DNA of 61,904 bases from Desulfobacterales bacterium (GCA_027025555.1 JALVQN010000211.1:1-61904), one strand, 5' to 3'. Shown: positions 36,605-53,886, numbered from the stretch's first letter. The notes: generated by a model not told the origin, from the sequence alone. Program-made: numbers and translations.

Positions 36605-36646
36605 TTAAAAAAGAAGAAGGGATCTCCTGAAGCCCCTTTCCCGGGG

Positions 36647-37933: not shown

Positions 37934-37954
37934 CGTTTTTCCTTCCATGGGGGT

Positions 37955-38332: not shown

Positions 38333-38355
38333 GGGAACCTCCGTGGGTCAAGATG

Positions 38356-39094: not shown

Positions 39095-39183
39095 ATTTTA
39101 CCTCCTCAAAATTTTCGGGATGCCCTTTACGAAAATCACGGCCCGCCCCATCTGTTTTTGAAACAAAGGACCTCAACAAAGAC

Positions 39184-39651
39184 TCAGGAGACGATGCACA
39201 CGGTCTTGCCGGAGATATTCGAAACGACTTTTTGAAATACGGTACCGGTGAAAAAACGGGCCACCCGGCCGGGCTTGCGGTTCAAGATGATAATGGCGTG
39301 TCCCCCCTTGCGCGCCTGGTCGATGATTTCTGATGCGATGTCTTTATGCTTGGCCCGGAAGACCATCTTCACATTGGATGGGGGAAATCCGTTTTCCACA
39401 AGGGCGTCTTTCACCTGCTTGAACTCTGTTTCCAATTCGTCAATGCGGTTTCTCACAAATTTCATGCCATCGGTGAGTTTTTCCATGACCGTGCCCTTGC
39501 TGGTTTCGATTTTGGGAAGCGGCATGTAGGCATGAAAGAGGGTGATCACCACCGAAGGCGCACGGGGAGAGAAGGTGCGGACTGCAAAGTCTATGGCTTT
39601 CTGATCGCTCTCGGAGAAATTGTAAGGAAGCAGTACCTTTTCACGTGCCAT
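39184..39651 (-). CDS. universal stress protein (UspA family)
   Basis: 155 aa from MAREKVLLP, behind a GGAGGG RBS. C-terminal USP pattern (HAIIILNRKPGRVARFFTGTVFQKVV). Confidence 0.8.
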   Translation of the reverse strand: MAREKVLLPYNFSESDQKAIDFAVRTFSPRAPSVVITLFHAYMPLPKIETSKGTVMEKLTDGMKFVRNRIDELETEFKQVKDALVENGFPPSNVKMVFRAKHKDIASEIIDQARKGGHAIIILNRKPGRVARFFTGTVFQKVVSNISGKTVCIVS

Positions 39652-39881
39652 CTCGCCCTCCTTGCTGATGAAAAATAGGGATGGGGACCGTTTGAATCCG
39701 GCGTCGACCGCAACATGTGGATGCCTGCCGCGTCGCCTTCCCGGGGCCTCTTGGAGTCTAGCGCGCCCGAGTTCGGCCGTCAACCGAATAATGCCCACAT
39801 TGTGTCAAAACACCCCCAAAAACGGCGGACGACCGGGGATGAAAAGACCCTACGAAAGCCGGGAGATCCTTCTTCAGGTGT

Positions 39882-41249
39882 TCAAGCGCGGAATCGATTC
39901 GCCTGGATTCCGTATTTTTTCATGCGGTTCCATACCGTGACCCGGCAGACACCCAGGATCCGGGCCGCCTGAGACTGGTTTCCTTTGGCCTCCCGGAGCG
40001 CTTCAATGAGCGCTTCCTTATCTTTAAAATCATTTTCTTTTTTGGCCCCTGCACCCTTTCTTTTGTCAACGGGTTGCTTGGGGAGGTGCTCCAGGGTCAG
40101 GGGCCCCTTGTCGGCCAAAACAAAGGCGTACTCCAGGGTGCTTTTCAGCTCCCTGACGTTTCCCGGCCAGGAATATTCCATGAGGGCCTCCATGGCCGCG
40201 CGGTGAATCCCGGTGACCGGCTTTTGGGTCTTTTCTTGAAGTCGGCGGATGAAGGTATCCACCAAAAGGGGAATGTCTTCAATGCGTTCCCGCAACGGGG
40301 GCAGGTGAATGGGAATCACGTTGATGCGGAAAAAAAAGTCTTCCCTGAAGAGGTTCTGTTCGATCAATGCCGCAAGGTTCTTATTGGTGGCCGTGATGAT
40401 CCGGACATCCACGGGAATGGGGCGATGATCCCCCACCCGCTCGATTTGTTTGGATTCCAGCACATTGAGCAGTTTGACCTGAACGGAAAGGGGCACATCC
40501 CCGATTTCATCCAGGAAGAGATCCCCGCCATGGGCCGCCTCGAACCGGCCGAGGCGATGGCGGTAAGCCCCGGTAAACGCCCCTTTGATGTGCCCGAAGA
40601 GTTCGCTTTCCAAAAGGGACTCATTCAATGCCGCACAGTTGAGCTGGATGAAAGGGCCCTCCCGTCGCGTTCCCAGCCGGTGGATGGCTTGGGCCACCAA
40701 GTCCTTCCCGGTGCCGCTCTCTCCGTACACAATGACCGGCGCATCACTGCGGGCCGCCCTTTGGATCATTTCAAAGACCTGTTTCATGGCAGGGGATTTC
40801 CCCACAATCCCGCAGAATTGGTCCCCACATTCCAGCTGGCGGGAAAGCTGTTCGATTTTTTCATCCAGACGGAATACTTCCGAAATATCGGTGAAGGTTT
40901 CCACGGCCCCCAGCGTCTTGCCGTCGGGCCCGGTCAGAAGGGAGGCGTTTTTGAGGATGTGGAGGTAACCGCCATCCTTTTTGATGATGGCACACCGTTT
41001 TTTATCCTGTTCGCCATGACGGAACAGGGCGCACCAGTTGTCATTTTCCTTTGTTCGGAAGGTTTCGCAGGCGTCACATCGCAGCAGGGTGCACGGCCTT
41101 CCGATGACTTCTTCGGCACGGTATCCCGTGAGGCGTTCAAACGCCTCGTTGATCATGAGGATGGTCCCATCGGTACCCACCACCAGGAGCCCCTCATTCA
41201 AGGTGTTGATGATTTGCTCCAGGTAGCGATTGATTTCCGTTTCATTCAT
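39882..41249 (-). CDS. sigma54-dependent activator with N-terminal PAS domain
   Basis: PAS domain (LNEGLLVVGTDGTILMINEAFERLTGY) with several Cys. Walker A (GESGTGKD), GAFTGA motif and a C-terminal Fis-type HTH. Divergent from the TusA operon. Confidence 0.9.
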   Translation of the reverse strand: MNETEINRYLEQIINTLNEGLLVVGTDGTILMINEAFERLTGYRAEEVIGRPCTLLRCDACETFRTKENDNWCALFRHGEQDKKRCAIIKKDGGYLHILKNASLLTGPDGKTLGAVETFTDISEVFRLDEKIEQLSRQLECGDQFCGIVGKSPAMKQVFEMIQRAARSDAPVIVYGESGTGKDLVAQAIHRLGTRREGPFIQLNCAALNESLLESELFGHIKGAFTGAYRHRLGRFEAAHGGDLFLDEIGDVPLSVQVKLLNVLESKQIERVGDHRPIPVDVRIITATNKNLAALIEQNLFREDFFFRINVIPIHLPPLRERIEDIPLLVDTFIRRLQEKTQKPVTGIHRAAMEALMEYSWPGNVRELKSTLEYAFVLADKGPLTLEHLPKQPVDKRKGAGAKKENDFKDKEALIEALREAKGNQSQAARILGVCRVTVWNRMKKYGIQANRFRA

Positions 41250-41272
41250 GGGCGCTCCGGGGAGGTATTTGT

Positions 41273-41313
41273 TTAAACATGTGTTTAATTAACATTAATC
41301 GATTAAACATGTC
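41273..41313. promoter_or_regulatory. UAS candidate: 16-bp perfect palindrome TTAAACATGTGTTTAA plus a repeated half-site
   Basis: Palindrome at 41273-41288. TTAAACATGTC recurs at 41303-41313. They lie 70-125 bp upstream of the -24/-12 element. Confidence 0.5.
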
Positions 41314-41384
41314 AAGGTTCTTTTTCGATTTTAAAATTGTAGGAATATGAGGGGATTAGGTGGGTGATGGCCGGGAAAATGCAT

Positions 41385-41400
41385 TGGCATCAATCTTGCT
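41385..41400 (+). promoter_or_regulatory. sigma54 (-24/-12) promoter candidate
   Basis: TGGCATcaatcTTGCT with canonical spacing. The predicted start site near 41410 excludes the ATGs at 41360 and 41405 and favours the ATG at 41438. Confidence 0.6.
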
Positions 41401-41437
41401 TTCCATGAGGAAGAGGATTGTAGGCAGGATAGAAGGG

Positions 41438-41665
41438 ATGGTTTCAAGAACGAAGATCGATCTCATCGGCAATGCCCGGCCCATTTGCCTTTTAAAGTGT
41501 AAAAGCACCTTAAATCAAATGAATACCGGGGACACCTTGGAGGTCTTGCTGGGGGATCCCGGAGTGGTCCACGAACTGATCGCCATTATCAACCGCTCTT
41601 CGGACCGGGTGGTCCAATGGGTGCAGGAGGGGGATCACTTCAGGATCCAGATTGAAAAGGGATAG
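41438..41665 (+). CDS. TusA/SirA-like small sulfur-carrier protein (non-canonical Cys motif)
   Basis: 75 aa. GNARPICLLKCKSTLNQMNTGDTLEVLLGD...RIQIEKG has TusA-like length and layout, but the Cys context is PICLLK rather than CPxP. Confidence 0.6.
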   Translation: MVSRTKIDLIGNARPICLLKCKSTLNQMNTGDTLEVLLGDPGVVHELIAIINRSSDRVVQWVQEGDHFRIQIEKG

Positions 41666-41691
41666 CGGTTCATCCATCAACGGGGGTTTTT

Positions 41692-42633
41692 ATGGAAATC
41701 AACAGACGATCCTTTCTCAAATTTTCCGGTGCGTTGGCGGCCGGCTCCGCGCTGAAGCCCACCGTTGTCCATGGGGGAAAGCCTCCAGCGCCGCCTGAGG
41801 ATGCCTTGGGATGCCTGGTGGACACCACCCTTTGTGTGGGATGCAGGAAGTGTGAACAGGCCTGCAACGCGCGTCACCATCTTCCCAAGCCGAAGGAATC
41901 CTTCGAAGAGATGACCGTTTTGGAAAACGAACGGCGGATGGACGAGACGTCGTACACGGTGGTGAACAAATACTACCCCAAACAGATCGGCACCCTCACC
42001 TGGCGGACCCGGCCCACCTTCGTCAAGTTCCAGTGCATGCATTGCAATGATCCTTCCTGTGTGTCGGCATGTATCGTGGGGGCCCTCACCAAGCAGGAGA
42101 ACGGGGCCGTGATCTATGATCCGAAAAAGTGCATCGGGTGCCGCTACTGCATGGTGGCATGTCCTTTTCAGGTCCCGGCCTATGAATACCGCAATGCCCT
42201 GACCCCCCAGGTGAGGAAGTGCACCTTTTGTTTCCAGTATGTGAAAGAGGGGGGGCTCCCGGCCTGTGCCCAGGTGTGTCCCAGGGAGGTGATCACCTTC
42301 GGCAAAAGGGCCGATTTGCTGCGCCTGGCCAAGTGGAAGATGAAGAGCAACCCGGGCAAGTATGTGGATCATATCTACGGGGAAAAGGAGGTGGGAGGGA
42401 CCTCGTGGCTCTACCTGGCCTCCGAACCCTTTGAGTCCATCGGCTTTCCCAAGCTCGGGACCAAAGCCCCGCCGAGACTCACGGAATCCATTCAGCACGG
42501 TCTTTTTCAATATTTTGCGGCGCCCATCGGCCTGTACGCACTTTTGGGAGGGATCATGTGGTTTACCGGTTACCTGAAACATTCCCACCGGGGCACCCCC
42601 CAAGAGACCCATGAGAAAGGAGACGCATCATGA
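41692..42633 (+). CDS. TAT-exported 4x[4Fe-4S] ferredoxin-type subunit (HybA/DsrO/NrfC family) with C-terminal TM anchor
   Basis: Signal peptide INRRSFLKFSGALAAG. Cys clusters CVGCRKCEQAC, CMHCNDPSCVSAC, CIGCRYCMVAC and CTFC...CAQVC. C-terminal helix APIGLYALLGGIMWFTGYL. Confidence 0.85.
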   Translation: MEINRRSFLKFSGALAAGSALKPTVVHGGKPPAPPEDALGCLVDTTLCVGCRKCEQACNARHHLPKPKESFEEMTVLENERRMDETSYTVVNKYYPKQIGTLTWRTRPTFVKFQCMHCNDPSCVSACIVGALTKQENGAVIYDPKKCIGCRYCMVACPFQVPAYEYRNALTPQVRKCTFCFQYVKEGGLPACAQVCPREVITFGKRADLLRLAKWKMKSNPGKYVDHIYGEKEVGGTSWLYLASEPFESIGFPKLGTKAPPRLTESIQHGLFQYFAAPIGLYALLGGIMWFTGYLKHSHRGTPQETHEKGDAS

Positions 42634-45600
42634 ACCTCCATGAAGAGGCCGCTCCGGTTCAAGAGAAGTTCCTGACCCCCGGGGTCATGGTCCTGCTGGG
42701 CGTCATGGGCGTGGGTGCCGCGTTTATCCTTACCCGCTTCCTTTTCGGCATCGGGAAGGTGGCCAACTTGAACAACCAGTTTCCCTGGGGCATCTGGATC
42801 GGCATCGATGTGGCTTCCGGCGTGGCCCTGGCCGCCGGCGGCTTCACCACCGGCGCCATCGCCTATGTCTTCAACCGGGACCAGTTTCATGCGGTCATTC
42901 GGCCGGCCCTGCTCACCGCCATGCTGGGCTATACGTTTGTGGTCCTGGGACTGGTGGTGGATATCGGAAGATACTGGAATATCACCAGCCCTGTTTTTCA
43001 TCATAACGGCAACTCGGTCCTTTTCGAAGTGGCCATGTGCGTGATGATCTATCTCCACGTCCTTTATATCGAGTTCATCCCCATTGTGGTGGAACGCTTC
43101 AAGGGCCGGGTGGCCCTGCCGGGGCCCCTTGCCGTCCTCAACGGGCCCATCGAGGCCCTCCTCGGCTTTGCCGACAAGGTCCTTTCCAAGATCATGTGGG
43201 TCTTCATCATCGCCGGGATCGTCCTTTCCTGCCTGCACCAATCCAGCCTGGGGTCTTTGATGCTGATCGCTCCGTACAAGGTCCATCCCTTGTGGTACAC
43301 GCCCATCCTGCCCCTCCTTTTCCTGCTGAGCGCCTTTGCCGCCGGCTATCCCATGGTGGTCTTCGAATCGATCCTCGCCGCCAAATCGTTCGACCGGCGA
43401 CCCGAGATGGAGGTGCTCACCCCCCTTGCCCGGTACATGCCGGTGCTCATGGGGCTCTACCTCGTTTTCAAGCTGGGAGACATGGTGGCCCGCGGCACGT
43501 ATGTGTATCTGCTCGACGGCACCTATCAGACGAATTCCTTCATCGTGGAGGTTCTCTTCGGCGTCATATTCCCTTTTGTGTTGTTGTTGTTCAAAAGGGT
43601 GCGGAAGTCCGCGGGATGGCTCTTTTTCGCCTCCACGCTCTGGGTCCTGGGCATCTTGTTGAATCGCATCAATGTCTTCGTGGTCAGTTATACCCCTCCC
43701 TATAAAATCGTATCCTATTTTCCGGCCCTGGGAGAGGTGTTCATTACGGCGGGCCTGATTTCCGGGCTCATGTTCCTGTATCGGGTCTTTGTGTTCATCT
43801 TCCCGGTGCTGGGGAAACAACCGAAAAAGATGTCTCCCACGGCCCTGGGCATGGTCATTGTCATGGGGGTCATGGTCTTCAATGGAAGGGCCCTGGGAAA
43901 GGAAATGGATGCGGCCTCCAAGCGTCCCATGACCCTTCACGCTGCCTCGGTGCCCTCCATCAAGGACGCCCCCAAGGTTTTCATCCTCGAAAGCGCTGTG
44001 ATTAAGAAATACAGCGACCTGTACGAACCGGTGCGGTTTATGCACAGCAAGCATGCCAACGTGCTGGGGGATTGTTCCATCTGCCACCACCGGATGCCCC
44101 GGGAAGAAGGAGACACGTACGGCGCACCGGTGAAAATGGAACAGCTTCGGGCCATGAAAAAGGTGCCGGTGGCATGTTCGGTGTGTCATGGGGATCCCTT
44201 TAATCCCAGACAACTCCAGGTGCCGGGGCTGAAGGGCGCCTATCACCGGCTTTGCATGGACTGCCACAAAGAGGCCGAACAGGTTCCCCATGTGCGGGGT
44301 CCGGTGTTGTACAGCGCCATGGTCCGGGGGCCCGTGGCCCGCACTTTGGACACCCGGGCCCCCACGGATTGTTTGGCCTGTCATGCCAAGAAGGTGCCGG
44401 ACCACACGAAACTGGTGACGCTTGAGGGACAGGTGGACGCCCAGGCCGTGACGAAAAATTGCCTTTCCTGTCATCGAGCCGAAGGCGAGGCCCTCTTGAA
44501 GACTTCCCATTGGAAATGGCGGGGTCCCTCCCCCTACACCATCGGCCACGAAAAACGCACCGATCTGGGGAAACACTCCAATACCATCAACAATTTTTGT
44601 ATCAACCTCAACGGCAACTGGCCCCGCTGCACCTCCTGTCACATCGGATACGGCTGGAAGGATGCCGACTTTGACTTCAAGGATATGTCGAAGATCGACT
44701 GCCTGGTGTGCCACGACACCACCGGCACCTACAAGAAGGCCCCGGCGGGTGCGGGATTTCCGAAAAAGGACGTGGATCTGGTGAAGGTGGCCAAACACGT
44801 GGGCCGGCCCAGCCGGGCCACCTGCGGCATGAACTGCCATTTCAGGGGCGGCGGCGGACCCGGGGTCAAGCACGGGGAATTGGGCCCGACCCTCCTGATG
44901 GGGACCTCCCAAAACGACGTCCATATGGGTGTGGACAGGAAAGGGATGAATTTCAAGTGCCAGGATTGTCACAAGACCCGGAACCATATGATCTCCGGGA
45001 GAAGCATTTCCATTCCGGCTTCGGAAGGGGACCTGTCCTGCGAGTACTGCCATACGGACCGCCCGCATATCGGGGCCGATCCGGTGGACCATCATTTGAA
45101 CCGGCATACCAAGCATGTGGCCTGCCAGACCTGCCATATCCCCCTTTATGCCAAAAATGCCCCCACCAAAATCTACTGGGATTGGTCCACCGCGGGTCAG
45201 GACCGGAAAGTGGAAAAGGATCCATACGACATGCCCACGTATCACAAGAAAAAGGGGAGCTTTAAATGGAAACAATCGGCCAAGCCCAGGTACTTTTGGT
45301 ACAACGGCACCGTGAAACGCTATGTGCTGGGGGATCGCATCAACGAAAAGGGGGTTACGGAGCTGACCAAGCCTGTGGGAAGCCCGGCGGATCCGGCATC
45401 CCGGATCTACCCCTTCAAGATCCATTCCGGGAAACAGATCAGTGATGCCGTGTACAAATATTTGATTACCCCCAAGCTTTACGGAGGGTTTTGGAAGCAC
45501 TGGGACTGGGATAAAGCAGCCAGAGACGGCATGGCGGCGGCGGGGTTGAAATACAGCGGCGAATATGAGTTCGTGGATACGGTCATGTACTGGGGGTTGA

Positions 45601-45902
45601 CCCACGAGGTCCTTCCCAAAGAGGAGGCCCTTTCGTGTGCCCATTGTCACCGGTCCCTCTCAAAAGCGCCCTACTGCGGCCGGTGCCACCAGGAAGCGCC
45701 GGGACAGGATTTCAAGAAGTTGGCCACCAGGGGGATCGACTTTAAGGCCCTGGCCGAGCAGGGCAAGGACGTGGCGGCGCTCATCGGGACCACCGATTAT
45801 CTCGATTTTAAGGCCCTGGGATATGCCGGGGATCCCGTCGAGACAGGGGGCCGGTTCAAGACATTGCCGTTGAGCCGCCGCCAGGTCACCGCGTTAAAAT
45901 AG
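42630..45902 (+). CDS. fusion protein: NrfD/PsrC-type polytopic membrane module plus a 13-haem periplasmic cytochrome c (tetrahaem c3-like region plus octahaem tetrathionate-reductase-like region)
   Basis: 1090 aa. The first roughly 400 aa are polytopic and NrfD-like. The remainder carries 12 CXXCH motifs and one CX3CH (CGMNCH). The central part (SHWKWRG, CTSCHIGYGW, CLVCHDTTGTYKK, HFRGGGGPGVKHG) resembles OTR-family octahaem cytochromes. Its ATG overlaps the upstream stop (ATGA). Confidence 0.85.
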   Translation: MNLHEEAAPVQEKFLTPGVMVLLGVMGVGAAFILTRFLFGIGKVANLNNQFPWGIWIGIDVASGVALAAGGFTTGAIAYVFNRDQFHAVIRPALLTAMLGYTFVVLGLVVDIGRYWNITSPVFHHNGNSVLFEVAMCVMIYLHVLYIEFIPIVVERFKGRVALPGPLAVLNGPIEALLGFADKVLSKIMWVFIIAGIVLSCLHQSSLGSLMLIAPYKVHPLWYTPILPLLFLLSAFAAGYPMVVFESILAAKSFDRRPEMEVLTPLARYMPVLMGLYLVFKLGDMVARGTYVYLLDGTYQTNSFIVEVLFGVIFPFVLLLFKRVRKSAGWLFFASTLWVLGILLNRINVFVVSYTPPYKIVSYFPALGEVFITAGLISGLMFLYRVFVFIFPVLGKQPKKMSPTALGMVIVMGVMVFNGRALGKEMDAASKRPMTLHAASVPSIKDAPKVFILESAVIKKYSDLYEPVRFMHSKHANVLGDCSICHHRMPREEGDTYGAPVKMEQLRAMKKVPVACSVCHGDPFNPRQLQVPGLKGAYHRLCMDCHKEAEQVPHVRGPVLYSAMVRGPVARTLDTRAPTDCLACHAKKVPDHTKLVTLEGQVDAQAVTKNCLSCHRAEGEALLKTSHWKWRGPSPYTIGHEKRTDLGKHSNTINNFCINLNGNWPRCTSCHIGYGWKDADFDFKDMSKIDCLVCHDTTGTYKKAPAGAGFPKKDVDLVKVAKHVGRPSRATCGMNCHFRGGGGPGVKHGELGPTLLMGTSQNDVHMGVDRKGMNFKCQDCHKTRNHMISGRSISIPASEGDLSCEYCHTDRPHIGADPVDHHLNRHTKHVACQTCHIPLYAKNAPTKIYWDWSTAGQDRKVEKDPYDMPTYHKKKGSFKWKQSAKPRYFWYNGTVKRYVLGDRINEKGVTELTKPVGSPADPASRIYPFKIHSGKQISDAVYKYLITPKLYGGFWKHWDWDKAARDGMAAAGLKYSGEYEFVDTVMYWGLTHEVLPKEEALSCAHCHRSLSKAPYCGRCHQEAPGQDFKKLATRGIDFKALAEQGKDVAALIGTTDYLDFKALGYAGDPVETGGRFKTLPLSRRQVTALK

Positions 45903-45961
45903 CTCAGACGGCACACCCCTGGGCCATTTCAGCGGTTCATTGAAAAAAAGGAGGAGACGCG

Positions 45962-46294
45962 ATGTTCAAAAAAGGGGCAATCATTTTCTTGGCAGTGTTG
46001 TTGGTGGGGGTTTACATCGGCCTGGTCTTGGCGGCCGAGAAGAAGGGGAATGATCGAAAAGGAAAGTATCTTTTCCGGAAAAATTGCCGGTCTTGCCACG
46101 TGGAAGGGGGCAGTGCAAAGGAGCTCAGCCCGGTGAGCAAGACCCAGGCCGAATGGGAGAAGGCGTTTAAGGAGTACGAAAGCCTTTCCTGCAAGGACGA
46201 GTGGCGCAAACTTTCCGATCAGGACAGACTCGACATTTTTACTTATCTTCATGAGCATGCATACGATTCGCCGTCCCCCATCAAGTGCAGTTAG
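45962..46294 (+). CDS. membrane-anchored monohaem cytochrome c
   Basis: 110 aa with an N-terminal hydrophobic helix and a single CRSCH motif. Confidence 0.7.
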   Translation: MFKKGAIIFLAVLLVGVYIGLVLAAEKKGNDRKGKYLFRKNCRSCHVEGGSAKELSPVSKTQAEWEKAFKEYESLSCKDEWRKLSDQDRLDIFTYLHEHAYDSPSPIKCS

Positions 46295-46342
46295 GCAGGG
46301 GGGCTGAAAAGGTGCTGGAAAGCGGATTCGGGGGAGATTGAC

Positions 46343-48535
46343 ATGGCCAAACGATCCCAAAGAGCGGTGAGCCGCCGGGGATTCCTGAAGGCTTCCACGG
46401 CGGCGGCCGCGGCGGTGTCCCTGGGAAGGGGAAAGGTGCTCCATGCCCTGGTACCCGCCGGGAAGGCGACGCCCAGGACAGGGCCCAAAGATGTGTATTC
46501 GGCTTGCGACATGTGTTTCAACAAATGCGGCCTGATCGCCCGGGTGGATGATTTGGGGGTGGTTCGAAAACTCGATCCCAACCCCAAATTCCACAAGTCC
46601 CGGGGGATGCTGTGTGCCCGGGGGAATGCGGGCGTCCGGCAGCTTTATGATCCGGATCGCCTGAAATATCCCCTGTTGAGGAAGGGCAAGCGGGGAGAGG
46701 GGCGCTGGCAACGCCTTTCATGGGATCAAGCCCTGGATTATGCCGCCGAAAAGCTCCAAGCCATCGGTGAGAAGTATACCCGTTGCGGTGTCCTGTTCAT
46801 GGCCGGCACCGACCTGCAATCCCAGTTTGTCCATCGATTTGCCGAGGTGTTCGGCTCATACAACGTGATTTCCCATGAAAGCAACTGTCTTTTGAGCCGA
46901 AACCGCGCTTTTTTGGATACCTTCGGGGAGGTGCCCGTCCCGGATGTTTTGAATTGTAAATATCTGATCATGGCCGGCGCCAACCGGTTTGAAGCCCTTG
47001 TGACCCCGGACAGCATCGACCTGATGACCGCCTTAAAAAAGGGGAGCAAGCTGGTGGTCCTCGATCCTCGGTTCACCAAGACCGCAGCCCTGGCCACCGA
47101 GTGGCATCCCATCCGGCCGGGGACCGACATGGCCTTTTTTTTGGCCGTGGCCCATGTGCTCATTGAAGAAGGCCTTTACGATAAAGCGTTTGTGGCCCAA
47201 AAGACCTTTGGATTCGAAAGGCTTGCCCCCCACATCAGGCAGTATCCGCCGGAATGGGCCGAAAAGGAGTGTGAGATTCCGGCAGCCCACATCCGGCGGA
47301 TCGCCAGGGAACTGGCGGCGGCGGCACCGGCGGCCATGGTCTATCCGGGAAGACGCAGTTCGGACTACGAGAATTCCACCCAGATCCGCCGTGCTTTCGC
47401 CATCGTCAACGCCCTGTTGGGGAATTGGGACCGTCCCGGGGGACTGACGGTCGCCCGCAAGGTCCCCTTGAAGAAGCCCCCCTATGATGCGCCTTTCTAT
47501 GAAGACAATCCGGACGGCCGGATCGATGAAGGCAGGTCTCTCATGATGTTCGGGGAAGAGGGGTCCTTCAAGCATGCCCGGGATGCGGTCATCGAAGGAA
47601 AGCCGTATCCGGTCAAGGGATTCTTCACGTACAAGACGAATCCCATGCAAACGGGCGCCAACCGAAAAAAGACGGTCCGCATGATCGAGACGCTCGATTT
47701 CATGCTCACCGTGGATATCGCCATGAGCGATACGGCGTGGATGGCCGACCTGGTCCTCCCGGCGCCCAGCTACCTGGAACGCCGAGATCCCGTATCGGCG
47801 TTGCAGGGAGCCTCGGCGTGCGCCTGTGTCATCACACGGGATCCGGTGGTAAAGCCCCTGTTTGAGGCCAAACCGGTGGTGTGGATCGTCGGCGAACTGG
47901 CCAAACGTTTGGGGCTGGGGGAATTTTTCGATTTTACCATGGATGCGTATCGAAAGGCCCAGTTGAAGAAGCTTCCCGGTGCCGAGGCGGCTTTGAAAAA
48001 AGACGGCGTGTACCATCACCCCGGAAAGCTCTACGGGGTCTATGAGGGCAAGCCTTTCAAGACCCTTTCCAAGAAGATCGAGTTGTACAACCAGCGTTAT
48101 GAAAAAGCCGGGATCGACCCCATGCCGGTCTATCGCCCGCCCAAACCGGTGCCCGACGGGCATTTCCGGCTGGTGGTGGGGCGCAGCGCGTATATCACCC
48201 AGGGATCGACCACCAATAATGTGCTTCTTCACGAACTCGTTCCCGAAAACACCTTGTGGCTTCACCCCAAACCGGCGCGTCGGCTCGGCATCCGACCCGG
48301 CGACTGGGTGGTGGTCTCCAGCAACGTGGGAACCCAGAGGCTGAAAGTCCGGGTCACCGAGGAAACAAGGGAAGATACGGTCTATATGGACTCAGGCTTT
48401 GGGGTCCTGTCCAAGGGCCTCACCCGCGTTTTCGGCAAAGGCGCCAGCATCGTGGAGATTCTGGAAGATTTCAATGATGAAATCTCCGGGAACATGGCCA
48501 TGCACGAGACCTTCGTCACCGTGAAACGGGGCTAA
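46343..48535 (+). CDS. TAT-exported molybdopterin oxidoreductase catalytic subunit, PsrA/PhsA/TtrA-like
   Basis: Signal peptide VSRRGFLKASTAAAAAVS. N-terminal FeS motif CDMCFNKCG...C. About 730 aa MopB architecture with a conserved Cys in HESNCLLSRN. Confidence 0.9.
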   Translation: MAKRSQRAVSRRGFLKASTAAAAAVSLGRGKVLHALVPAGKATPRTGPKDVYSACDMCFNKCGLIARVDDLGVVRKLDPNPKFHKSRGMLCARGNAGVRQLYDPDRLKYPLLRKGKRGEGRWQRLSWDQALDYAAEKLQAIGEKYTRCGVLFMAGTDLQSQFVHRFAEVFGSYNVISHESNCLLSRNRAFLDTFGEVPVPDVLNCKYLIMAGANRFEALVTPDSIDLMTALKKGSKLVVLDPRFTKTAALATEWHPIRPGTDMAFFLAVAHVLIEEGLYDKAFVAQKTFGFERLAPHIRQYPPEWAEKECEIPAAHIRRIARELAAAAPAAMVYPGRRSSDYENSTQIRRAFAIVNALLGNWDRPGGLTVARKVPLKKPPYDAPFYEDNPDGRIDEGRSLMMFGEEGSFKHARDAVIEGKPYPVKGFFTYKTNPMQTGANRKKTVRMIETLDFMLTVDIAMSDTAWMADLVLPAPSYLERRDPVSALQGASACACVITRDPVVKPLFEAKPVVWIVGELAKRLGLGEFFDFTMDAYRKAQLKKLPGAEAALKKDGVYHHPGKLYGVYEGKPFKTLSKKIELYNQRYEKAGIDPMPVYRPPKPVPDGHFRLVVGRSAYITQGSTTNNVLLHELVPENTLWLHPKPARRLGIRPGDWVVVSSNVGTQRLKVRVTEETREDTVYMDSGFGVLSKGLTRVFGKGASIVEILEDFNDEISGNMAMHETFVTVKRG

Positions 48536-48572
48536 GGCCCCCGTTCCGCATTGAAAAGGATAAGGACGGCCG

Positions 48573-49220
48573 ATGAAAAGCAAGCCTCATAAAAAATATG
48601 CCATCGTCATCGACACCTTCAAGTGTTTCGACTGCAAGGCATGCATGATCGCCTGTAAGGTGGAAAACAATGTCCCGGAGGGGTTCTGGCGGAACTGGGT
48701 CCGCCACACCGGAGGTGTCAAAGGCAGGCGCACCCAGTTTCAGCCCGGGCAGTGCATGCAGTGTGACGCACCTTCCTGTGTGGCGGCCTGCCCGGTGGGG
48801 GCCACCTATAAACAGGAAGACGGTCTGGTGGTCATCGATCCGGCAAAGTGTATCGGGTGCGGCAACTGTGTGACGGCATGCCCTTATGGGGCGCGCTACA
48901 GGAATCCCCTCAGCCATACGGCCGACAAGTGCGACTTTTGTGAACACCGCCTCAAACGGGGGGAAGAACCGGCCTGTGTGATCACCTGTCCCACCAAGGC
49001 CCGCATTTTCGGAGACCTCAACGATCCTGAAAGCCGGGTCAGCCGGTTGATGAAAGAGGAACGGCTGGTCCAGGTGATCAATCCCGTGTTCGATACCCGA
49101 CCGAACATCTATTATTGGGCCGGAACCCGCCTTCTGGACTGGCCCAAAATCCCCACCCTGCCGGGCGGGGTTCACATGCCGAAGGCGTTCTGGAAGACTC
49201 CCATGGAAGAACGGACCTGA
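48573..49220 (+). CDS. 4Fe-4S dicluster electron-transfer subunit, PsrB/PhsB-like
   Basis: Cys clusters CFDCKACMIAC, CMQCDAPSCVAAC, CIGCGNCVTAC and CDFC...CVITC. 215 aa. Confidence 0.9.
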   Translation: MKSKPHKKYAIVIDTFKCFDCKACMIACKVENNVPEGFWRNWVRHTGGVKGRRTQFQPGQCMQCDAPSCVAACPVGATYKQEDGLVVIDPAKCIGCGNCVTACPYGARYRNPLSHTADKCDFCEHRLKRGEEPACVITCPTKARIFGDLNDPESRVSRLMKEERLVQVINPVFDTRPNIYYWAGTRLLDWPKIPTLPGGVHMPKAFWKTPMEERT

Positions 49221-49257
49221 GCCGGACCACAACCCTAAAAAGAAAGGAGCTTACGTC

Positions 49258-50388
49258 ATGAGACGATGGAAAGGCACCCTTTGGCTGCCGCTGGCGGCCC
49301 TGGTGGTGGGCGCATTGCTCATGGGGTGCGCCGCCCCCCAAAAGACGGCAACCCCGGCAAAAGCAAAGCCCGAGTGGTGGTTCCACGACACGGTGAACAT
49401 CGACTTCGTGAAACAGTATGCCGTGATGCCCCAACCCAAGGGTGTCATGATCGTCGATGCCCGGCCGAAAAGGGCCAAGTACGACAAGGGGCACATTCCC
49501 ACGGCCGTCAGCATTCCGGCCAGGCAGTTCGACAAGTTCAAGGATCGGCTGCCCAAGGATAAGAAGACCCTTTTGATCTTCTACTGCGGGGGCCCCACCT
49601 GAAAGCTGAGTCATCAGGCCGCCAGGAAGGCGGTCAAGCTGGGATACACCCAGGTCAAGGTCTTTGCCGACGGTTTTCCGGCCTGGGAAAAAGACCCTGA
49701 AACCTATACGGTCGTGGAAATCAGTTGGCTTTTGGAAAAGATGAAAGCCAGGGTCCCCATGACCCTCGTCGATGCCCGGCCCAAGCGCGCCAAATATGAC
49801 AAGGGCCATATCCCGGGTGCCGTCAGCATTCCGGCCAGGCAGTTCGACAAGTTCAAGGATCGGCTGCCCAAAGACAAGAAAGCCCTCTTGGTCTTTTATT
49901 GCGGAGGCTATACCTGAAAGCTGAGTCATCAGGCCGCCAGGAAGGCGGTCAAGCTGGGATACACCCAGGTCAAGGTCTTTGCCGCCGGATACCCGGCATG
50001 GAAGAAGGCGGCGGCTGCAACGGCCGCCCCCGCACCGGTTACGATTAAAACCGGCACCGCCGAGGGCACCATTGACATCGCCTCTTTCGAAAAGATCCTG
50101 TCGGAAAATCCCAACAGCATCTATCTCATCGATGTCCGGGATCCGGAGGAATACAAGGCGGGCCATTTCAAGACGGCCGTCAATATTCCCGTGGATGATC
50201 TGGAAAAACAGATCAAGACACTGGCTGCGGACAAACCCATCGTCTTTGTTTGCGCCACCGGCGCCAGGAGCGGCGAATCCTTTTACATGGTTAAGGATCT
50301 TCGCCCTGATATCAAGGAGGTCTATTTCCTGGATGCCGAAGTGACCTATAACAAAGACGGATCCTATCGCATCAAAGCGCCCCAGTGA
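49258..50388 (+). CDS. periplasmic lipoprotein with three rhodanese domains; two in-frame TGA codons (49600, 49915) interpreted as selenocysteine
   Basis: AAAGGAG RBS and an LLMGC lipobox. ORF-track pieces 49258..49602, 49714..49917 and 50191..50388 share one frame. No other stops lie between them. Domains 1 and 2 read FYCGG(P/Y)T-TGA-KLSHQAARKAVKLGY. Domain 3 has an ordinary CATGARS loop. Confidence 0.7.
49617..49635 (+). other. candidate bacterial SECIS hairpin 1
   Basis: GGCCGCC-AGGAA-GGCGGTC (7-bp stem including one G-U pair) begins 14 nt after the TGA at 49600-49602. It lies inside a 73-nt stretch (49597-49669) that is repeated exactly. Confidence 0.45.
49932..49950 (+). other. candidate bacterial SECIS hairpin 2
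   Basis: Identical hairpin 14 nt after the TGA at 49915-49917. It lies inside 49912-49984, the exact copy of 49597-49669. Confidence 0.45.
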
Positions 50389-50424
50389 GGTATGAGGTCT
50401 GCCTCCCTCATTCCTCCCTTCCCA

Positions 50425-50462
50425 CCGAGACCCCTGGTCCGATCCGGTACCCGGGGTCTCGG
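50425..50462. terminator. 10-bp GC-rich hairpin between convergent genes
   Basis: CCGAGACCCC (50425-50434) pairs with GGGGTCTCGG (50453-50462). No clear T-tract. Sits between the rhodanese stop (50388) and the TorD-like stop (50489). Confidence 0.35.
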
Positions 50463-50488
50463 CCCTCCCCTGATCCTTTTCGGATCGC

Positions 50489-51160
50489 TCACGGGAGGTC
50501 GGTAGCGTTTGCAGGCGTGACAGCCGAAATAAACTGTAAAAAGGACAGAAGGATTGAGGCGGACAATCCATAGAAGGGACAGCCCGTTTCTCCTTCATTG
50601 AGTCTTGCAGTGACGACCGAAACCCATGGCAATAAGGCGCTCCGGGTAAAGGCTGCGGCTTCTTCCAGAAGATCCCCCCGGGAGCTCATCCATCCCTGCT
50701 CCAGGAGAAAGTAGAGATACTCCAGCTGGATGCACAGGTGGTCGGGCGGTTCCGTGCGGTCCTGGGCCACATCCAGCCCGGCCCCGGCCAGCCGTTTCTT
50801 CATTTCCACGGCCGGAGGTCCCATCATCAAGGCCTCTTCGCCCTCGTAACAAGAAGCGTACAGATAAGCGGAAAGAGGCCCCTTCCGATTCACGAAGAGC
50901 CGGACATAGGCCTCTTCCAAGTGCCCGAAGAGTAAATCAGGCTCTGAAAAGGCGTGGATTTCCTGTTGCGCGAGAGAAACGGCGTCGCGGGGAGAATAGG
51001 GGATATCGGCCTTCAACCGCACAAAGGGCGCCCACCAGCGGGAATCCAGGAGTGCTTTGCAAAAAAAGGGGTCAGGCCCCCAGAAGACGGCGCACATCTT
51101 GGAGAGGCCATCGAGGAAATCGGAGGGTCCTCCGGGAGTGGAAAAGCGTGCCTTTTTCAT
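50489..51160 (-). CDS. TorD/DmsD-family redox-enzyme maturation chaperone
   Basis: 223 aa. Family-like segments (EAYVRLFVN, PPDHLCIQLEYLYFLL). Convergent with the molybdoenzyme operon. Confidence 0.75.
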   Translation of the reverse strand: MKKARFSTPGGPSDFLDGLSKMCAVFWGPDPFFCKALLDSRWWAPFVRLKADIPYSPRDAVSLAQQEIHAFSEPDLLFGHLEEAYVRLFVNRKGPLSAYLYASCYEGEEALMMGPPAVEMKKRLAGAGLDVAQDRTEPPDHLCIQLEYLYFLLEQGWMSSRGDLLEEAAAFTRSALLPWVSVVTARLNEGETGCPFYGLSASILLSFLQFISAVTPANATDLP

Positions 51161-51172
51161 CCTCCATGCGTT

Positions 51173-51460
51173 TCAGTGGAAATTGCCTTCTGAATAAGAG
51201 CGGGCGACCCGGTCCATATATTCCTGGAGGGAATCAAAGACCAGGTATTGTTCGATGCGGTCCCAGGCGATGGCCGTCGACACGCCGGAGGCCCAGTCGT
51301 TGGGCGTGGTGCCTTCGGCGATGCGTCCCACCATGAAGATTTTATCGCCCTGGATCTGAAAGGCCACGTCTTCAAGGACCACGCTCTCCTCGGAAGTCCG
51401 GCTGCCAAGATAAATCAAGACGATTTTTTCTGAAAGATCCGGAAAATAGAATTCGTTCAA
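51173..51460 (-). CDS. hypothetical protein, co-oriented upstream of the TorD-like gene
   Basis: About 95 aa from a TTG behind a GGAGGGGGG RBS (the ORF-track ATG at 51487 lacks an RBS). No recognisable motif. Stop lies 12 nt before the TorD-like start. Confidence 0.45.
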   Translation of the reverse strand: MNEFYFPDLSEKIVLIYLGSRTSEESVVLEDVAFQIQGDKIFMVGRIAEGTTPNDWASGVSTAIAWDRIEQYLVFDSLQEYMDRVARSYSEGNFH

Positions 51461-51668
51461 TGTCCCCCCTCCATGGGCTGGACGCATTGGGAAAGGCCCT
51501 TTGCCTCCAGGCCCGTCTTGTCGGGTATGGAAGTCCCTGTCCCTTCATGGATATGGCGCCGCCGGACGCCATGGCCTCCATTCATACACCCGCGGCCGCG
51601 GTGTTGACAACATCAAATCATCGGCCGGCACAGGCCTTAAAGGTTGAGAATCGGGCGGGCCGGGAAGC

Positions 51669-52358
51669 TCAATCCACCAGTTGGATCAGGGTTTCCGGGG
51701 TTCCCGGCGGGCCGTTGACGCCCTTGTACTGGAGGAAAACGCCGTCTGAGCGTCTGAACCAATAGTGGGCGCGCCACAACTTTTCGAGGAGCCCGGTCAG
51801 GGTGATCCGGACTTTGTTGGCCAGGACGCGCCGGCCGCCCACCGTGATGGCCTCCGGCTCCAATCGACAGGCTTTGAGCCGAAGGAGTTTCAAGGTATCG
51901 GGCCGGATCATCCAGAAGGTGTCCTCCGCCTTCCCGGTGGCGGCCATGTGCCCCAGGGCGTTGGGGGCCGCCTGGTACCAGGAGAGCTCCCCCACGGACA
52001 CCCGTTTGTCAATGGGGCGCCCTTTGAAGGTCCCGGTGAGGTGAATCGTGTCTTTATTGCGCTTGGCCGTGATCCGGGTGTGGGTGTTGATGAATTGCCA
52101 CTGGAAGGTCTGGCCGGCGCTGTTGCATACGGTGATGAAGGTATTTTCCGGCTCCATGACCCGCACCGTCATCGGGTCTTGATGATCTTCCTCCCGAATG
52201 TAGTGAAAGGTCTCCTTTCCCTCAGTCTGCCGGTAGCGATGCCGTTTCAGGCGGGTTCCGCCGGCCCGGCCGGCGGAAAAAAGCACGCCGGCAACGGCCA
52301 TGAGGCACAGAAGTGCTCCTGTTTCCCGTAAAAAGAAAATCTTTCCCTTTTTTCTCAT
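51669..52358 (-). CDS. hypothetical exported/membrane-anchored protein
   Basis: Start at MRKKGKIFFL, followed by a hydrophobic helix (ALLCLMAVAGVLF). No recognised domain. Confidence 0.5.
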   Translation of the reverse strand: MRKKGKIFFLRETGALLCLMAVAGVLFSAGRAGGTRLKRHRYRQTEGKETFHYIREEDHQDPMTVRVMEPENTFITVCNSAGQTFQWQFINTHTRITAKRNKDTIHLTGTFKGRPIDKRVSVGELSWYQAAPNALGHMAATGKAEDTFWMIRPDTLKLLRLKACRLEPEAITVGGRRVLANKVRITLTGLLEKLWRAHYWFRRSDGVFLQYKGVNGPPGTPETLIQLVD

Positions 52359-52694
52359 TGACCCGAAATCCTTATACCAGGTCAAAAACGTATTTTTGAA
52401 CCGGTCTGAAGCCCGTATTTTTTTCTCTTGGAGTCATTTTGGGAGCTTATATCCTCTTTGGGGGGACAGATCAACCCTGAAAGGGCCGCCTGGAGCGCGA
52501 AAAAATGCAGAATCGGCACCGGCATGTTCCCCACAAGCATAAAAATACCGTTAAAAAGTGTCACACTTCAATTGACATGGAAAAGTGCCGGTACTAAGGA
52601 GCCTGAGAGTCTCGATTTTAATTGACGAGGAAGGCTTTCAAACCGGTTTTGAAGGCGTCCATTGAGCGCCCCTTTGGAACAGACAGGAAAACCG

Positions 52695-53873
52695 ATGCAA
52701 ACACCCCGGGACACCTCCCAGGACCTGCCGGAATCCCGATCCTTTCACCGGGGGACCGTGTTGGTCCTTTCGTTGTGCCATCTGGTCCATGACATCTACT
52801 CGGGCTTTTTATCCCCCCTGCTTCCGCTTCTCATCCAGAAGCTCTCCTTGTCTTTGACCCGGGCCGGTCTTTTGTCCACGGTGATGCAGCTTCCTTCCCT
52901 GTTGAATCCTTTCATCGGTGTGCTTGCCGACCGGGTGAGCGTAAAAGGGTTCATCGTTTTGGCCCCGGCGGTCACCGCCGTGACCATGAGCCTCATCGGA
53001 GTGGCTCCCACTTACGGCGTGCTCCTTATCCTCCTGGGGCTTGCCGGCATCAGCGTGGCCGTCTTCCATGTCCCCGCCCCGGTATTGGTGGCCAACTTTT
53101 CCGGGGACCAAAAGGGCATGGGGATGAGCTGGTTCATGGTGGGCGGCGAATTGGCCCGGACCCTGGGGCCCATGGCTGCAGTGGGCGCGGTCTCTCTTCT
53201 GGGGCTGGAAGGCTTTTACCCCGTCATGGGATTCGGTCTTCTGGCTTCCCTGTGGCTCTTTTTCCACCTCAAGGACGTGCCCATGAACACTCCTGTGAAA
53301 AAGGACGTGTCCCTGGTTCGAACCTGGCAGAAGATGCGGCACGTTCTCCTGCCGCTGACCGGCATCCTGGTGGCCCGCGGCTTCATGCACGCCTGCATGA
53401 CCCCCTTTTTGCCCACCTTCATCAAGATTCACACCGGCGATCTCTGGCTGGCCGGGATTTCGCTGACGCTGCTGGAGAGTGCCGGGGTGGGGGGTGTTTT
53501 GTTGTCGGGGATCCTGAGCGACCGGCTGGGCCGAAGGAAAATCCTTTTCGCCTCCATGGTGGGCGCGCCCCTGGCCCTGGTCTTGGTCTCGGTGCTGGAC
53601 GGCTGGCTCCGGCTGGTCTCCGTCGTTGTGATGGGATTTACCCTGCTTTCCACGACACCGGTGATGCTGGCGCTGGTGCAGGAGCACAGCACCTCGAGCC
53701 CGGCCGCGGCCAACGGGTTTTTCATGATGGTCTCCTTCACGGCGCGTTCCGCCGTCACGGTGGGGGTGGGGTTCATCGCCGACGGCATCGGGCTTCAGGC
53801 CACCTACCTGGTCAGTGCCGTGCTGGGCCTGGCCGGGTTGCCCTTCATCTGGATGTTGCCAAAAAGAAGATGA
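52695..53873 (+). CDS. MFS transporter
   Basis: About 12 TM segments and an MFS loop motif (LSDRLGRRK). Start placed at MQTPRD. Confidence 0.85.
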   Translation: MQTPRDTSQDLPESRSFHRGTVLVLSLCHLVHDIYSGFLSPLLPLLIQKLSLSLTRAGLLSTVMQLPSLLNPFIGVLADRVSVKGFIVLAPAVTAVTMSLIGVAPTYGVLLILLGLAGISVAVFHVPAPVLVANFSGDQKGMGMSWFMVGGELARTLGPMAAVGAVSLLGLEGFYPVMGFGLLASLWLFFHLKDVPMNTPVKKDVSLVRTWQKMRHVLLPLTGILVARGFMHACMTPFLPTFIKIHTGDLWLAGISLTLLESAGVGGVLLSGILSDRLGRRKILFASMVGAPLALVLVSVLDGWLRLVSVVVMGFTLLSTTPVMLALVQEHSTSSPAAANGFFMMVSFTARSAVTVGVGFIADGIGLQATYLVSAVLGLAGLPFIWMLPKRR

Positions 53874-53886
53874 CAGGCGCGCCCGG

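Follow-up and report, generated by a model that had tools for sequence, protein, structure and literature searches.

Related systems and composition of the locus

The gene cluster analyzed here, at positions 41273-51160 of a 61,904-nucleotide stretch of DNA from a Desulfobacterales bacterium (GCA_027025555.1, JALVQN010000211.1:1-61904; this whole stretch is called the window below), encodes an iron-sulfur (FeS) protein, a fusion of an NrfD-type membrane domain with a multihaem cytochrome of the OTR family, a PsrAB-like molybdoenzyme and a rhodanese with predicted selenocysteine (Sec), and its closest described relatives are parts of several separate respiratory systems. NrfABCD of Escherichia coli and MccACD/SirACD of Wolinella and Shewanella combine, like the locus, a periplasmic catalytic multihaem cytochrome with an FeS protein of four clusters and an NrfD-family quinol subunit that has no cofactor, the NrfB wire being replaced here by a tetrahaem domain (PMC8076601). 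Unlike in these systems, the catalytic domain belongs to the OTR family rather than to NrfA or MccA and is fused to the membrane subunit via an extra helix, the FeS protein and the membrane domain belong to the HybA/HybB-HmcB/HmcC type, and a second, molybdenum-based enzyme is appended. The OTR of Shewanella oneidensis (1SP3) has eight haems and Cys64 in common with the window domain, whose Gly-Lys pair may correspond to Gly55-Lys56 of OTR. OTR is soluble and stands alone, and neither a partner nor a physiological role has been defined for it (PMC12949373); the window domain is membrane-anchored, lies between a tetrahaem domain and an extra haem with a tail, and has one CX3CH motif.

The molybdoenzyme resembles PsrABC/PhsABC (Thermus 2VPZ, Wolinella, Salmonella) in the twin-arginine translocation (TAT) signal of the A subunit, the FS0 cluster, the Mo-ligand Cys, an equivalent of Arg332 and the four-cluster B subunit, and the psr operon of Desulfurivibrio also contains a TorD-type chaperone and a periplasmic multi-rhodanese (PMC12142623). 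In contrast to PsrABC/PhsABC, there is no PsrC/PhsC here, a monohaem cytochrome c gene precedes psrA, and the rhodanese has predicted Sec. The PsrAB-like pair without PsrC is also comparable with ArrAB-CymA. The best-scoring models for the FeS, membrane and tetrahaem parts are those of Hmc/Nhc/Ohc and of HybA-HybB from E. coli Hyd-2, all of them below curated cut-offs; unlike these systems, the window has no hydrogenase genes and no cytoplasmic HmcDEF-type subunits nearby, and the cytochrome carries a fused OTR domain. The MOLY cluster of Desulfobacterota (MolyA, MolyB and the TorD-type MolyC), a proposed marker of sulfur disproportionation, shares the anchor-less periplasmic CISM A and B subunits and the chaperone (PMC12998232), but the A and B pair here stands behind an NrfD-cytochrome module together with a cytochrome c and a rhodanese, and the likeness is one of architecture only. 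Finally, ExtHIJKL/MccSep of Geobacter sulfurreducens is a periplasmic multihaem polysulfide reductase with Cys and Sec, encoded beside a rhodanese-like lipoprotein (PMC13510729); MccSep, however, is a pentahaem protein of another family, and in the window Sec is predicted in the rhodanese, not in the cytochrome.

The operon is real, widely conserved and uncharacterised in uncultured Desulfobacterales. On balance we consider it probable that it is one sigma54-controlled, periplasm-facing respiratory operon of interchangeable modules for the reduction of S-S-bonded sulfur, with a shared electron entry. Its parts, their export signals and their co-conservation are given by the sequence; its function, its direction and the physical association of the system are what we infer. 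Literature searches on the composite cluster (OTR with NrfD/HybA, the fusion, Desulfobacterales, Desulfocarbo), whose coverage of NrfD modules was incomplete, returned only annotation-level mentions of otr and no description of the operon, in agreement with a preliminary description of this DNA that did not recognise the combination as a characterised system. A review of NrfD complexes lists no OTR-based complex and mentions no fusion (PMC8076601).

Organization of the operon

Domains were assigned by Pfam and NCBIfam profile matches on the open reading frames (ORFs) of the window, and public gene calls were compared; the window is a metagenome scaffold (ENA ERZ23491057). The locus contains the following features:

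39882-41249, minus strand: divergent sigma54 activator gene (PAS, Sigma54_activat, AAA_lid_14, HTH_8)
41270-41312, strand not given: predicted upstream activator sites TGTTTAA / TTAAACA, direct and inverted repeats (repeat analysis)
41385-41400, plus strand: sigma54 -24/-12 promoter TGGCATCAATCTTGCT (pattern match with one mismatch)
41438-41665, plus strand: TusA-like gene (ORF opens at 41360; start at 41438 preferred)
41692-42633, plus strand: hybA-like FeS gene (TAT_signal, Fer4_11)
42630-45902, plus strand: NrfD-multihaem cytochrome fusion gene (NrfD, TIGR04315)
45962-46294, plus strand: monohaem cytochrome c gene (Cytochrome_CBB3, Cytochrom_C)
46343-48535, plus strand: psrA-like molybdopterin oxidoreductase gene (Molybdop_Fe4S4, Molybdopterin, Molydop_binding)
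48573-49220, plus strand: psrB-like ferredoxin gene (Fer4_11)
49258-50388, plus strand: triple-rhodanese lipoprotein gene (three Rhodanese stretches, lipobox, two in-frame TGA codons)
50489-51160, minus strand: convergent TorD/NarJ-family chaperone gene (Nitrate_red_del)

The seven co-oriented genes are separated, in order, by 26 nt (41665 to 41692), a 4-nt ATGA overlap (42630/42633), and 59, 48, 37 and 37 nt. The ORF coordinates reproduce exactly the gene order and gaps of the preliminary description, whose domain content agrees gene by gene with the Pfam and NCBIfam matches. Matches to sigma70-like promoters and terminators within the cluster are no commoner than in shuffled sequence, and the conservation of the cluster in many independent assemblies shows that the arrangement is not due to chance. 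The PsrAB-like pair had been described as having no PsrC of its own, and indeed no NrfD/PsrC-type gene is present among the flanking ORFs scanned (27656-39798 and 51669-61289). Related loci likewise have no PsrC-type gene between psrB and the rhodanese gene.

Conservation in related loci

An alignment-seeded scan of species-representative genomes yielded 80 loci, to which the window proteins were mapped by tblastn. These loci fall into two clades with a common core that consists of the activator, the TGTTTAA sites, the -24/-12 promoter, the hybA- and nrfD-like genes and the 13-haem cytochrome; the hybA-like gene is present in nearly all of the 80 loci. Clade 1 (60-84% identity) comprises metagenome-assembled genomes (MAGs) of Desulfobacterales and Desulfarculia, Desulfocarbo indianensis and the Desulfococcaceae HSG8 and HSG9. 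Here nrfD and the cytochrome form one gene. Of the 37 loci that extend 1 kb or more beyond it, 32 have psrA directly downstream, and 20 of 21 have psrB; where 7 kb or more is available (19 loci), the rhodanese gene was found in 11, the chaperone gene in 12 and the cytochrome c gene in 13. The fusion, psrAB and their neighbors are thus co-conserved across genomes, as expected from the preliminary description. Clade 2 (about 50% identity) includes Desulfosarcina variabilis, D. widdelii, D. alkanivorans, Desulfatitalea and Desulfatibacillum alkenivorans. In this clade HybA, NrfD (about 400 aa) and a 13-haem cytochrome of 712 aa each have a gene of their own, and there is no psrAB.

Four loci lack the OTR domain: L043, L044, L045 (5713-7536) and L053 (6507-8333). 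Their NrfD-tetrahaem protein of 607-608 aa stops just past the fourth haem. HybA and the cytochrome c are still encoded in all four. Three show psrA, the contig of the fourth ending before it, the rhodanese gene is present in two, and psrB and the chaperone gene are found where the contig continues. The monohaem cytochrome c occurs together with psrA in 26 of 27 loci, and the 27th contig ends before psrA would be visible. These patterns together show an electron-entry module (HybA and NrfD-tetrahaem) that is combined with OTR, with PsrAB or with both. The proposal that the OTR domain and the molybdoenzyme may hang on a single anchor gains support from the four OTR-less loci.

Loci without psrAB carry other sulfur-type genes downstream. 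In those of Desulfosarcina (L054:14797-16287 and L057:14376-15914), one protein combines a metallo-beta-lactamase fold with two rhodanese domains, and in L057 a peroxiredoxin gene comes before it. Another psrAB-less locus (L032:13511-14851) has a pyridine-nucleotide-disulfide oxidoreductase downstream. One MAG contig (CAZHAH010000005.1) contains two fusion genes about 17 kb apart (L002 and L003), each followed by a psrA-like gene.

The NrfD-multihaem cytochrome fusion

The fusion protein of 1090 aa can be divided into five parts:

42630-43829, plus strand: HybB/NrfD-type quinone-interacting membrane domain, residues 1-400 (Pfam NrfD; about 10 hydrophobic segments)
43842-43898, plus strand: extra hydrophobic helix, residues 405-423 (hydropathy)
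44007-44399, plus strand: tetrahaem c3/c7-type domain, residues about 460-590 (Cytochrome_C7; CxxCH at 482, 516, 542 and 581)
44400-45674, plus strand: OTR-family octahaem domain, residues 591-1015 (TIGR04315, 1SP3 alignment)
45675-45902, plus strand: 13th haem (CGRCH) and conserved tail, residues 1016-1090 (haem motif, invariant columns)

The membrane domain scores 350.7 bits with the HybB model (cut-off 450) and 277 bits with HmcC (cut-off 550); ten transmembrane helices are predicted for HybB-type subunits (PMC8076601). The extra helix is most simply interpreted as the former signal peptide of a once separate cytochrome, which would carry the chain to the periplasm, because the separate cytochrome of the unfused clade starts with a signal peptide at the equivalent place. 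The tetrahaem domain resembles the C-terminal domain of HmcA, at 66 bits with the HmcA model as compared with a cut-off of 400.

The OTR domain exceeds the cut-off of TIGR04315 (523.8 bits against 375, residues 591-1009) and has haem motifs at 611, 667, 691, 732 (CX3CH), 777, 804, 832 and 1003. Its alignment with Shewanella OTR (1SP3) scores 456 bits (query residues 164-575, chain residues 15-423), with all eight haem sites in register, seven CxxCH and one CX3CH, where CGMNCH stands opposite CGSCH of OTR. This fourth haem motif (44823-44840) is CGMNCH in the fused clade, but CxxCH in the unfused clade and in Shewanella OTR. Cys657 aligns with Cys64 of OTR and is Cys or Sec in all 75 loci scored. 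In OTR, after Mowat et al. (2004), we take Lys56 to be a haem ligand and Cys64 its neighbor. An invariant Gly-Lys of the window domain may correspond to Gly55-Lys56, but the spacing from Lys to Cys is one residue longer than in OTR, so that an ungapped alignment sets His649 opposite Lys56.

The Cys657 codon (44598-44600) is TGT in the window. Of 75 related loci, 27 have TGA there and a frame that stays open beyond it (NNF-C-...-CTSCH; L054 at about 11974, L057, L058, L059, L061-L080 and L035/L036); their hosts include Desulfosarcina variabilis, D. widdelii and D. alkanivorans. As judged from these codons, the position is a Sec/Cys pair of OTR-family cytochromes; a Sec form of the TIGR04315 cytochrome has been listed as 'GenBank annotated' (PMC13188914).

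The 13th haem and the C-terminal tail are present in both clades and lie beyond the aligned part of Shewanella OTR. Invariant columns of this region are C1016, C1019, H1020 and G1064-F1076, and the invariant tail (ALGY-GDP-x4-GGRF-x2-L) is a candidate docking segment. In public annotations the fusion protein is named 'Ni/Fe-hydrogenase cytochrome b subunit' or 'octaheme c-type cytochrome'.

The molybdoenzyme and its chaperone

The PsrA-like subunit has a TAT signal, the FS0 Cys motif and three MopB domains (Pfam). Its best solved relative is PsrA of Thermus thermophilus (2VPW; 434 bits, full length), followed by acetylene hydratase (227 bits) and ArrA (151 bits). Cys182 stands opposite the Mo-ligand Cys173 and Arg337 opposite Arg332 of Thermus PsrA, while His145 is replaced by Gly; the roles of Cys173, Arg332 and His145 are those reportedly described by Jormakka et al. 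(2008). Among the NCBIfam models the best is PhsA (NF012032), at 560.1 bits below its cut-off of 694, the next best reaching 252; the models of DmsA/YnfE, Fdh, ArrA and TtrA score far lower. Identity with annotated enterobacterial phsA, the best annotated matches among plasmids, is 32.6% over the full length. These matches in structure, model and identity place the subunit in the Psr/Phs group, though not as a strict PhsA orthologue. This grouping is in line with the catalytic subunit of chalcogen type proposed earlier, and a placement with nitrate- or formate-type enzymes was not seen. Substrates within the Psr/Phs group cannot be read from sequence (PMC12998232), and one Psr homologue reduces both thiosulfate and tetrathionate (PMC12949373).

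The PsrB-like subunit is a four-cluster ferredoxin with four Cys groups and no signal peptide, of the PsrB/TtrB/NrfC type; TtrB (180 bits), NrfC (159) and DsrO (157) are its highest-scoring models, all below their cut-offs. The dedicated NrfD-type C subunit by which PsrABC/PhsABC operons are recognised is missing from the same operon. The chaperone matches Nitrate_red_del with 80 bits and the TorD model with 66 bits.

The rhodanese with predicted selenocysteine

The rhodanese lipoprotein has the lipobox LLMGC and three rhodanese domains. Two in-frame TGA codons, at 49600 and 49915, fit the selenocysteine noted earlier in the carrier. They lie in the motifs CGGPT-U-KLS of domain 1 (TGA 49600-49602) and CGGYT-U-KLS of domain 2 (TGA 49915-49917), and domain 3 has a canonical CxxGxRS loop. 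A TGA at the same position in an open frame is found in 14 related loci, and TGC in L019 (domain 2), L030 and L033. Hairpins resembling a selenocysteine insertion sequence (SECIS) follow both codons:

49618-49634, plus strand: SECIS-like hairpin GCCGCC-AGGAA-GGCGGT (fold; 18 nt past the first TGA)
49933-49949, plus strand: second, identical SECIS-like hairpin, after the second TGA

A hairpin of the form CCGCC-NGGAA-GGCGG, 18-20 nt downstream of TGA, is shared by 23 distinct sequences. Compensatory changes are seen in L002 (CCGCT/AGCGG) and L012 (CTGCC/GGCAG), and the motif is not retained in Cys-encoding orthologues. No curated SECIS family and no tRNA-Sec were found in the window by an Rfam scan at gathering scores and a tRNA scan. 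A 'UxxS' rhodanese selenoprotein form 1 is listed in a selenoproteome review of 2026 (PMC13188914). The window rhodanese fits this form, and Sec insertion is predicted.

The Sec is located five residues after the canonical catalytic Cys (C-x4-U), and the same loop is U-x4-U in TsoB. Such a placement suggests a selenenyl-sulfide redox pair rather than a simple persulfide carrier. It had also been suggested that Sec hints at selenium-compound chemistry. This suggestion is weakened, since Sec alternates with Cys in the orthologues; the alternation identifies a catalytic residue and carries no information on whether selenium is a substrate. A selenium substrate deduced from Sec was accordingly rejected. 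Orthology of the rhodanese with ExtH or TsoB was likewise rejected, the scores being far below the cut-offs (27 bits against 200 for ExtH).

Domains 1 and 2 form a 241-nt direct repeat (49451-49691 and 49766-50006) with 87% identity. The 70 nt from each TGA onward, hairpin included, are identical, which suggests gene conversion or a constraint at the RNA level. The public gene call breaks the rhodanese gene (49258-50388; L081:9969-11099) at the TGA codons into pieces of 114, 67 and 65 aa.

TusA-like, FeS and small cytochrome proteins

The TusA-like protein is small (75 aa), cytoplasmic and matched by Pfam TusA (PF01206) with 43.9 bits, compared with a gathering score of 28.6. Its start is most likely at 41438, because the sigma54 element places the start of transcription past the ATG at 41405 that was chosen by the public gene caller; the N-termini of homologues also correspond to 41438. 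The Cys-Pro position of TusA is Arg-Pro in the window and never Cys in an alignment of 47 homologues, and in about 11 of the 47 the nearby Cys of a P-x-C motif has given way to G, N or S. A role as persulfide carrier was rejected, as the catalytic Cys is absent, and this protein, conserved directly behind the promoter, is unlikely to be a sulfur carrier. Of the earlier suggestion that the TusA-like and rhodanese proteins both point to persulfide or sulfur handling, the part on the rhodanese stands, giving a sulfur context, and the part on the TusA-like protein is weakened.

The FeS protein is TAT-exported, has four clusters and a hydrophobic C-terminal tail, and is of the HybA/HmcB type, with both models below their cut-offs (HmcB 338 bits against 420; HybA 260.9 against 263). 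The monohaem cytochrome c starts with a signal or anchor and has no conserved Met among 28 aligned homologues; Cys77, His99 and Cys109 (in a C-terminal DSPSPxKC) are invariant outside CxxCH. The haem could therefore be ligated by His/Cys or bis-His. His/Cys ligation is typical of sulfur-handling cytochromes.

Promoter and activator

A strict sigma54 regular expression missed most loci (11/50). By a scored search, 36 of 50 related loci have a -24/-12 element that agrees with the consensus at 9 or more of 11 positions and lies 300-400 nt ahead of hybA, compared with a mean of 4-6 of 11 positions in shuffled sequences. The single -24/-12 promoter proposed for the genes is thus present and kept at the same relative position in relatives. 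The k-mer TGTTTAA occurs on either strand in 44 of 50 homologous intergenic regions.

The activator consists of an N-terminal PAS domain, an AAA+ sigma54-interaction domain and a Fis-type helix-turn-helix (HTH) domain (Pfam); its gene occurs in both clades and adjoins the hybA-like gene in most loci. The features by which sigma54 enhancer-binding regulons are recognised (AAA+ and HTH domains, an adjacent -24/-12 promoter and upstream sites) are all found here. The PAS domain had been noted as Cys-rich, and five of its cysteines (Cys53, Cys58, Cys61, Cys73 and Cys86) prove to be invariant or nearly so, being present in 55-56 of 56 homologues from both clades. FisR, a sigma54 activator that responds to sulfide or persulfide, has cysteines in its regulatory domain in Cupriavidus (PMC7315123), and the five-Cys PAS domain of the activator would sense the redox state or reactive sulfur.

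Proposed mechanism and alternative explanations

In the respiratory operon that we favor, the HybA-type FeS protein and the HybB/NrfD-type membrane domain would form a quinone-interacting module. Electrons from menaquinol, and possibly from a periplasmic cytochrome c3 pool via the HmcA-like tetrahaem domain, would pass through NrfD/HybA to the haem wire. From there one branch would lead to the OTR site and another to PsrB and PsrA, by way of the 13th haem and/or the monohaem cytochrome c. Both centres would reduce S-S-bonded inorganic sulfur species; the haem site is a candidate for tetrathionate or sulfite, and the Mo site for thiosulfate or polysulfide. Menaquinol reportedly depends on assistance from the proton-motive force to reduce thiosulfate and other acceptors of low potential (Stoffels et al. 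2012). The HybAB-type module may matter for this requirement of menaquinol-driven thiosulfate reduction, as ion pathways are predicted in NrfD-like subunits (PMC8076601).

The Sud protein of Wolinella supplies sulfane sulfur to Psr, and the C-x4-U rhodanese would bind and deliver sulfane sulfur in the same way. Such a supply was also proposed for the triple rhodanese of the Desulfurivibrio psr operon, which is upregulated during sulfur disproportionation (PMC12142623). Tetrathionate, in view of the in vitro activity of OTR, and sulfite, on which OTR was proposed to act alongside Psr in a genetic study of 2026, would both fit a sequential pathway with the Mo enzyme (PMC12949373). The Cys or Sec at the OTR active site (Sec in 27 loci) and the alternation of Sec and Cys in the rhodanese point to nucleophilic chalcogen chemistry.

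A narrower version of this operon is tentative, and we would sooner doubt than accept it. In this version all parts would belong to one membrane supercomplex, whose single HybAB-type quinol module and fused haem wire would feed two chemically different centres, the OTR and the Mo site. The two centres would act one after the other on a single sulfur substrate chain, with the C-x4-Sec rhodanese channelling sulfane sulfur. The chain would run from tetrathionate to thiosulfate and on to sulfide and sulfite, or from thiosulfate to sulfite and on to sulfide.

Several observations weigh against the reductive operon with shared electron entry. In canonical PsrABC the B subunit docks on PsrC; here HybA presumably takes up that position, and the contact between PsrAB and the fusion protein is a proposed one. 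The absence of psrAB from five fused-clade loci and from the whole unfused clade shows that the OTR module is autonomous, and the coupling could be merely regulatory. The TusA-like protein has no conserved Cys, and the window contains no Sec-insertion genes or tRNA-Sec. An AlphaFold2 model of the fusion (12-sequence alignment) was unusable, with a mean predicted local distance difference test (pLDDT) score of 35 and a predicted template modelling (pTM) score of 0.28, and the topology is predicted from hydropathy. Moreover, purified OTRs reduce nitrite and hydroxylamine better than tetrathionate, otr mutants have no tetrathionate phenotype (PMC12949373), and the related Hmc/Nhc modules feed electrons into the quinone pool (PMC8076601).

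The distribution of psrAB could be explained if two enzymes were merely co-transcribed, HybA-NrfD-OTR being a self-contained quinol:acceptor reductase and PsrAB a soluble enzyme outside any shared complex, supplied together with the cytochrome c and the rhodanese by the cytochrome c3 pool or by an anchor encoded elsewhere. The OTR module without psrAB, in the unfused clade and in the five fused-clade loci, agrees with this, as does the small cytochrome c that psrAB brings with it, and clusters of anchor-less MolyAB with a TorD-type chaperone do exist in Desulfobacterota (PMC12998232). We nevertheless consider this explanation unlikely: the OTR-less loci keep HybA and NrfD-tetrahaem directly upstream of cytochrome c and psrAB, the genes are tightly spaced behind one conserved sigma54 promoter, and internal promoter and terminator signals are at the level of chance. 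Less likely again is the oxidative or disproportionating direction, in which thiosulfate, sulfite or polysulfide would be oxidised or dismutated and the electrons passed to menaquinone via the Hmc/Nhc-like module. In its favor, HmcB/HmcC and HybA/HybB, which belong to complexes that pass periplasmic electrons to quinone (PMC8076601), are the top-scoring models for the FeS protein and the membrane domain, clusters of anchor-less molybdoenzyme and TorD correlate with S0 disproportionation (PMC12998232), and psr and the triple rhodanese are upregulated in disproportionating Desulfurivibrio (PMC12142623). On the other hand, no Sox, Soe or Dsr genes are present in the scanned neighborhood. The characterised members of the Psr/Phs and OTR families are reductases, and menaquinone is a poor acceptor for the thiosulfate/tetrathionate couple.

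Two further explanations concern the substrate, and both appear very improbable. The OTR domain could be a nitrite or hydroxylamine reductase or a detoxifying enzyme, with the sulfur-type neighbors as unrelated passengers. OTR enzymes do reduce nitrite and hydroxylamine far better than tetrathionate in vitro (PMC12949373), and a gene of a qNOR-like NorB lies 8 kb upstream. The OTR gene is, however, consistently linked to Psr/Phs-type and rhodanese genes, rhodanese-containing neighbors occur in the unfused clade too, the position of the active-site Cys is Sec in 27 loci, and there are no adjacent nap, nrf or hcp genes. The operon could also serve respiration or detoxification of selenium or tellurium oxyanions, the Psr-like enzyme being a selenite reductase similar to SrrA and the rhodanese a selenium carrier similar to ExtH. 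SrrA of Bacillus selenitireducens is a member of the Psr/Phs family, and the rhodanese domains weakly match the ExtH and TsoB models, the former with the 27 bits mentioned above; the alternation of Sec and Cys, as discussed, marks a catalytic residue and not a substrate. The ext cluster of Geobacter pairs a rhodanese lipoprotein with a Sec multihaem cytochrome, but its ExtKL (MccSep) proved to be a polysulfide reductase (PMC13510729).

Other features of the window

Outside the locus, a second sigma54-type -24/-12 match, TGGCATGCAGTTTGCT, was found at 13840-13855 (minus strand), directly upstream of a multicopper oxidase gene (12188-13831, minus strand). Positions 3693-5258 (minus strand) hold the gene of another sigma54 activator, this one with a GAF domain. 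Within 8-14 kb upstream of the locus are a multihaem cytochrome gene with Multi-haem_cyto and c7-type domains (27656-29053, plus strand) and the gene of the NorB-like protein (31277-33565, minus strand), which is of the qNOR type with an N-terminal cytochrome c-like domain. The region of about 1.5 kb between the chaperone gene and an MFS transporter gene (51161-52660) contains ORFs without a Pfam match, for example 51669-52385 (minus strand).

Implications

Two elements of the locus were already known, as the UxxS rhodanese and the Sec form of TIGR04315 are both listed in a review (PMC13188914). What is new is the wiring: the cytochrome is joined to its NrfD subunit in one protein, and the CISM enzyme has no anchor of its own. 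For annotation, it matters that gene callers split the selenoprotein rhodanese at TGA and give the fusion the name of a hydrogenase subunit. The locus also bears on the processing of sulfur intermediates by the abundant marine Desulfobacterales.

Since the structure of 2004, OTR-type octahaem cytochromes have lacked a settled physiological substrate and electron donor, and the study of 2026 only "suggests" sulfite reduction alongside Psr (PMC12949373). The locus hard-wires OTR to a defined quinol module; one clade adds a Psr/Phs-type enzyme and a sulfur-transfer protein, and in another clade the active-site Cys of OTR is Sec. The role of OTR-type cytochromes thereby becomes testable in cultured sulfate reducers, as Desulfocarbo indianensis has the fused form with psrAB, and the unfused form is found with Sec in Desulfosarcina species and with Cys in Desulfatibacillum alkenivorans. 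If true, the supercomplex would supply the long-missing physiological role of the OTR-type cytochromes.

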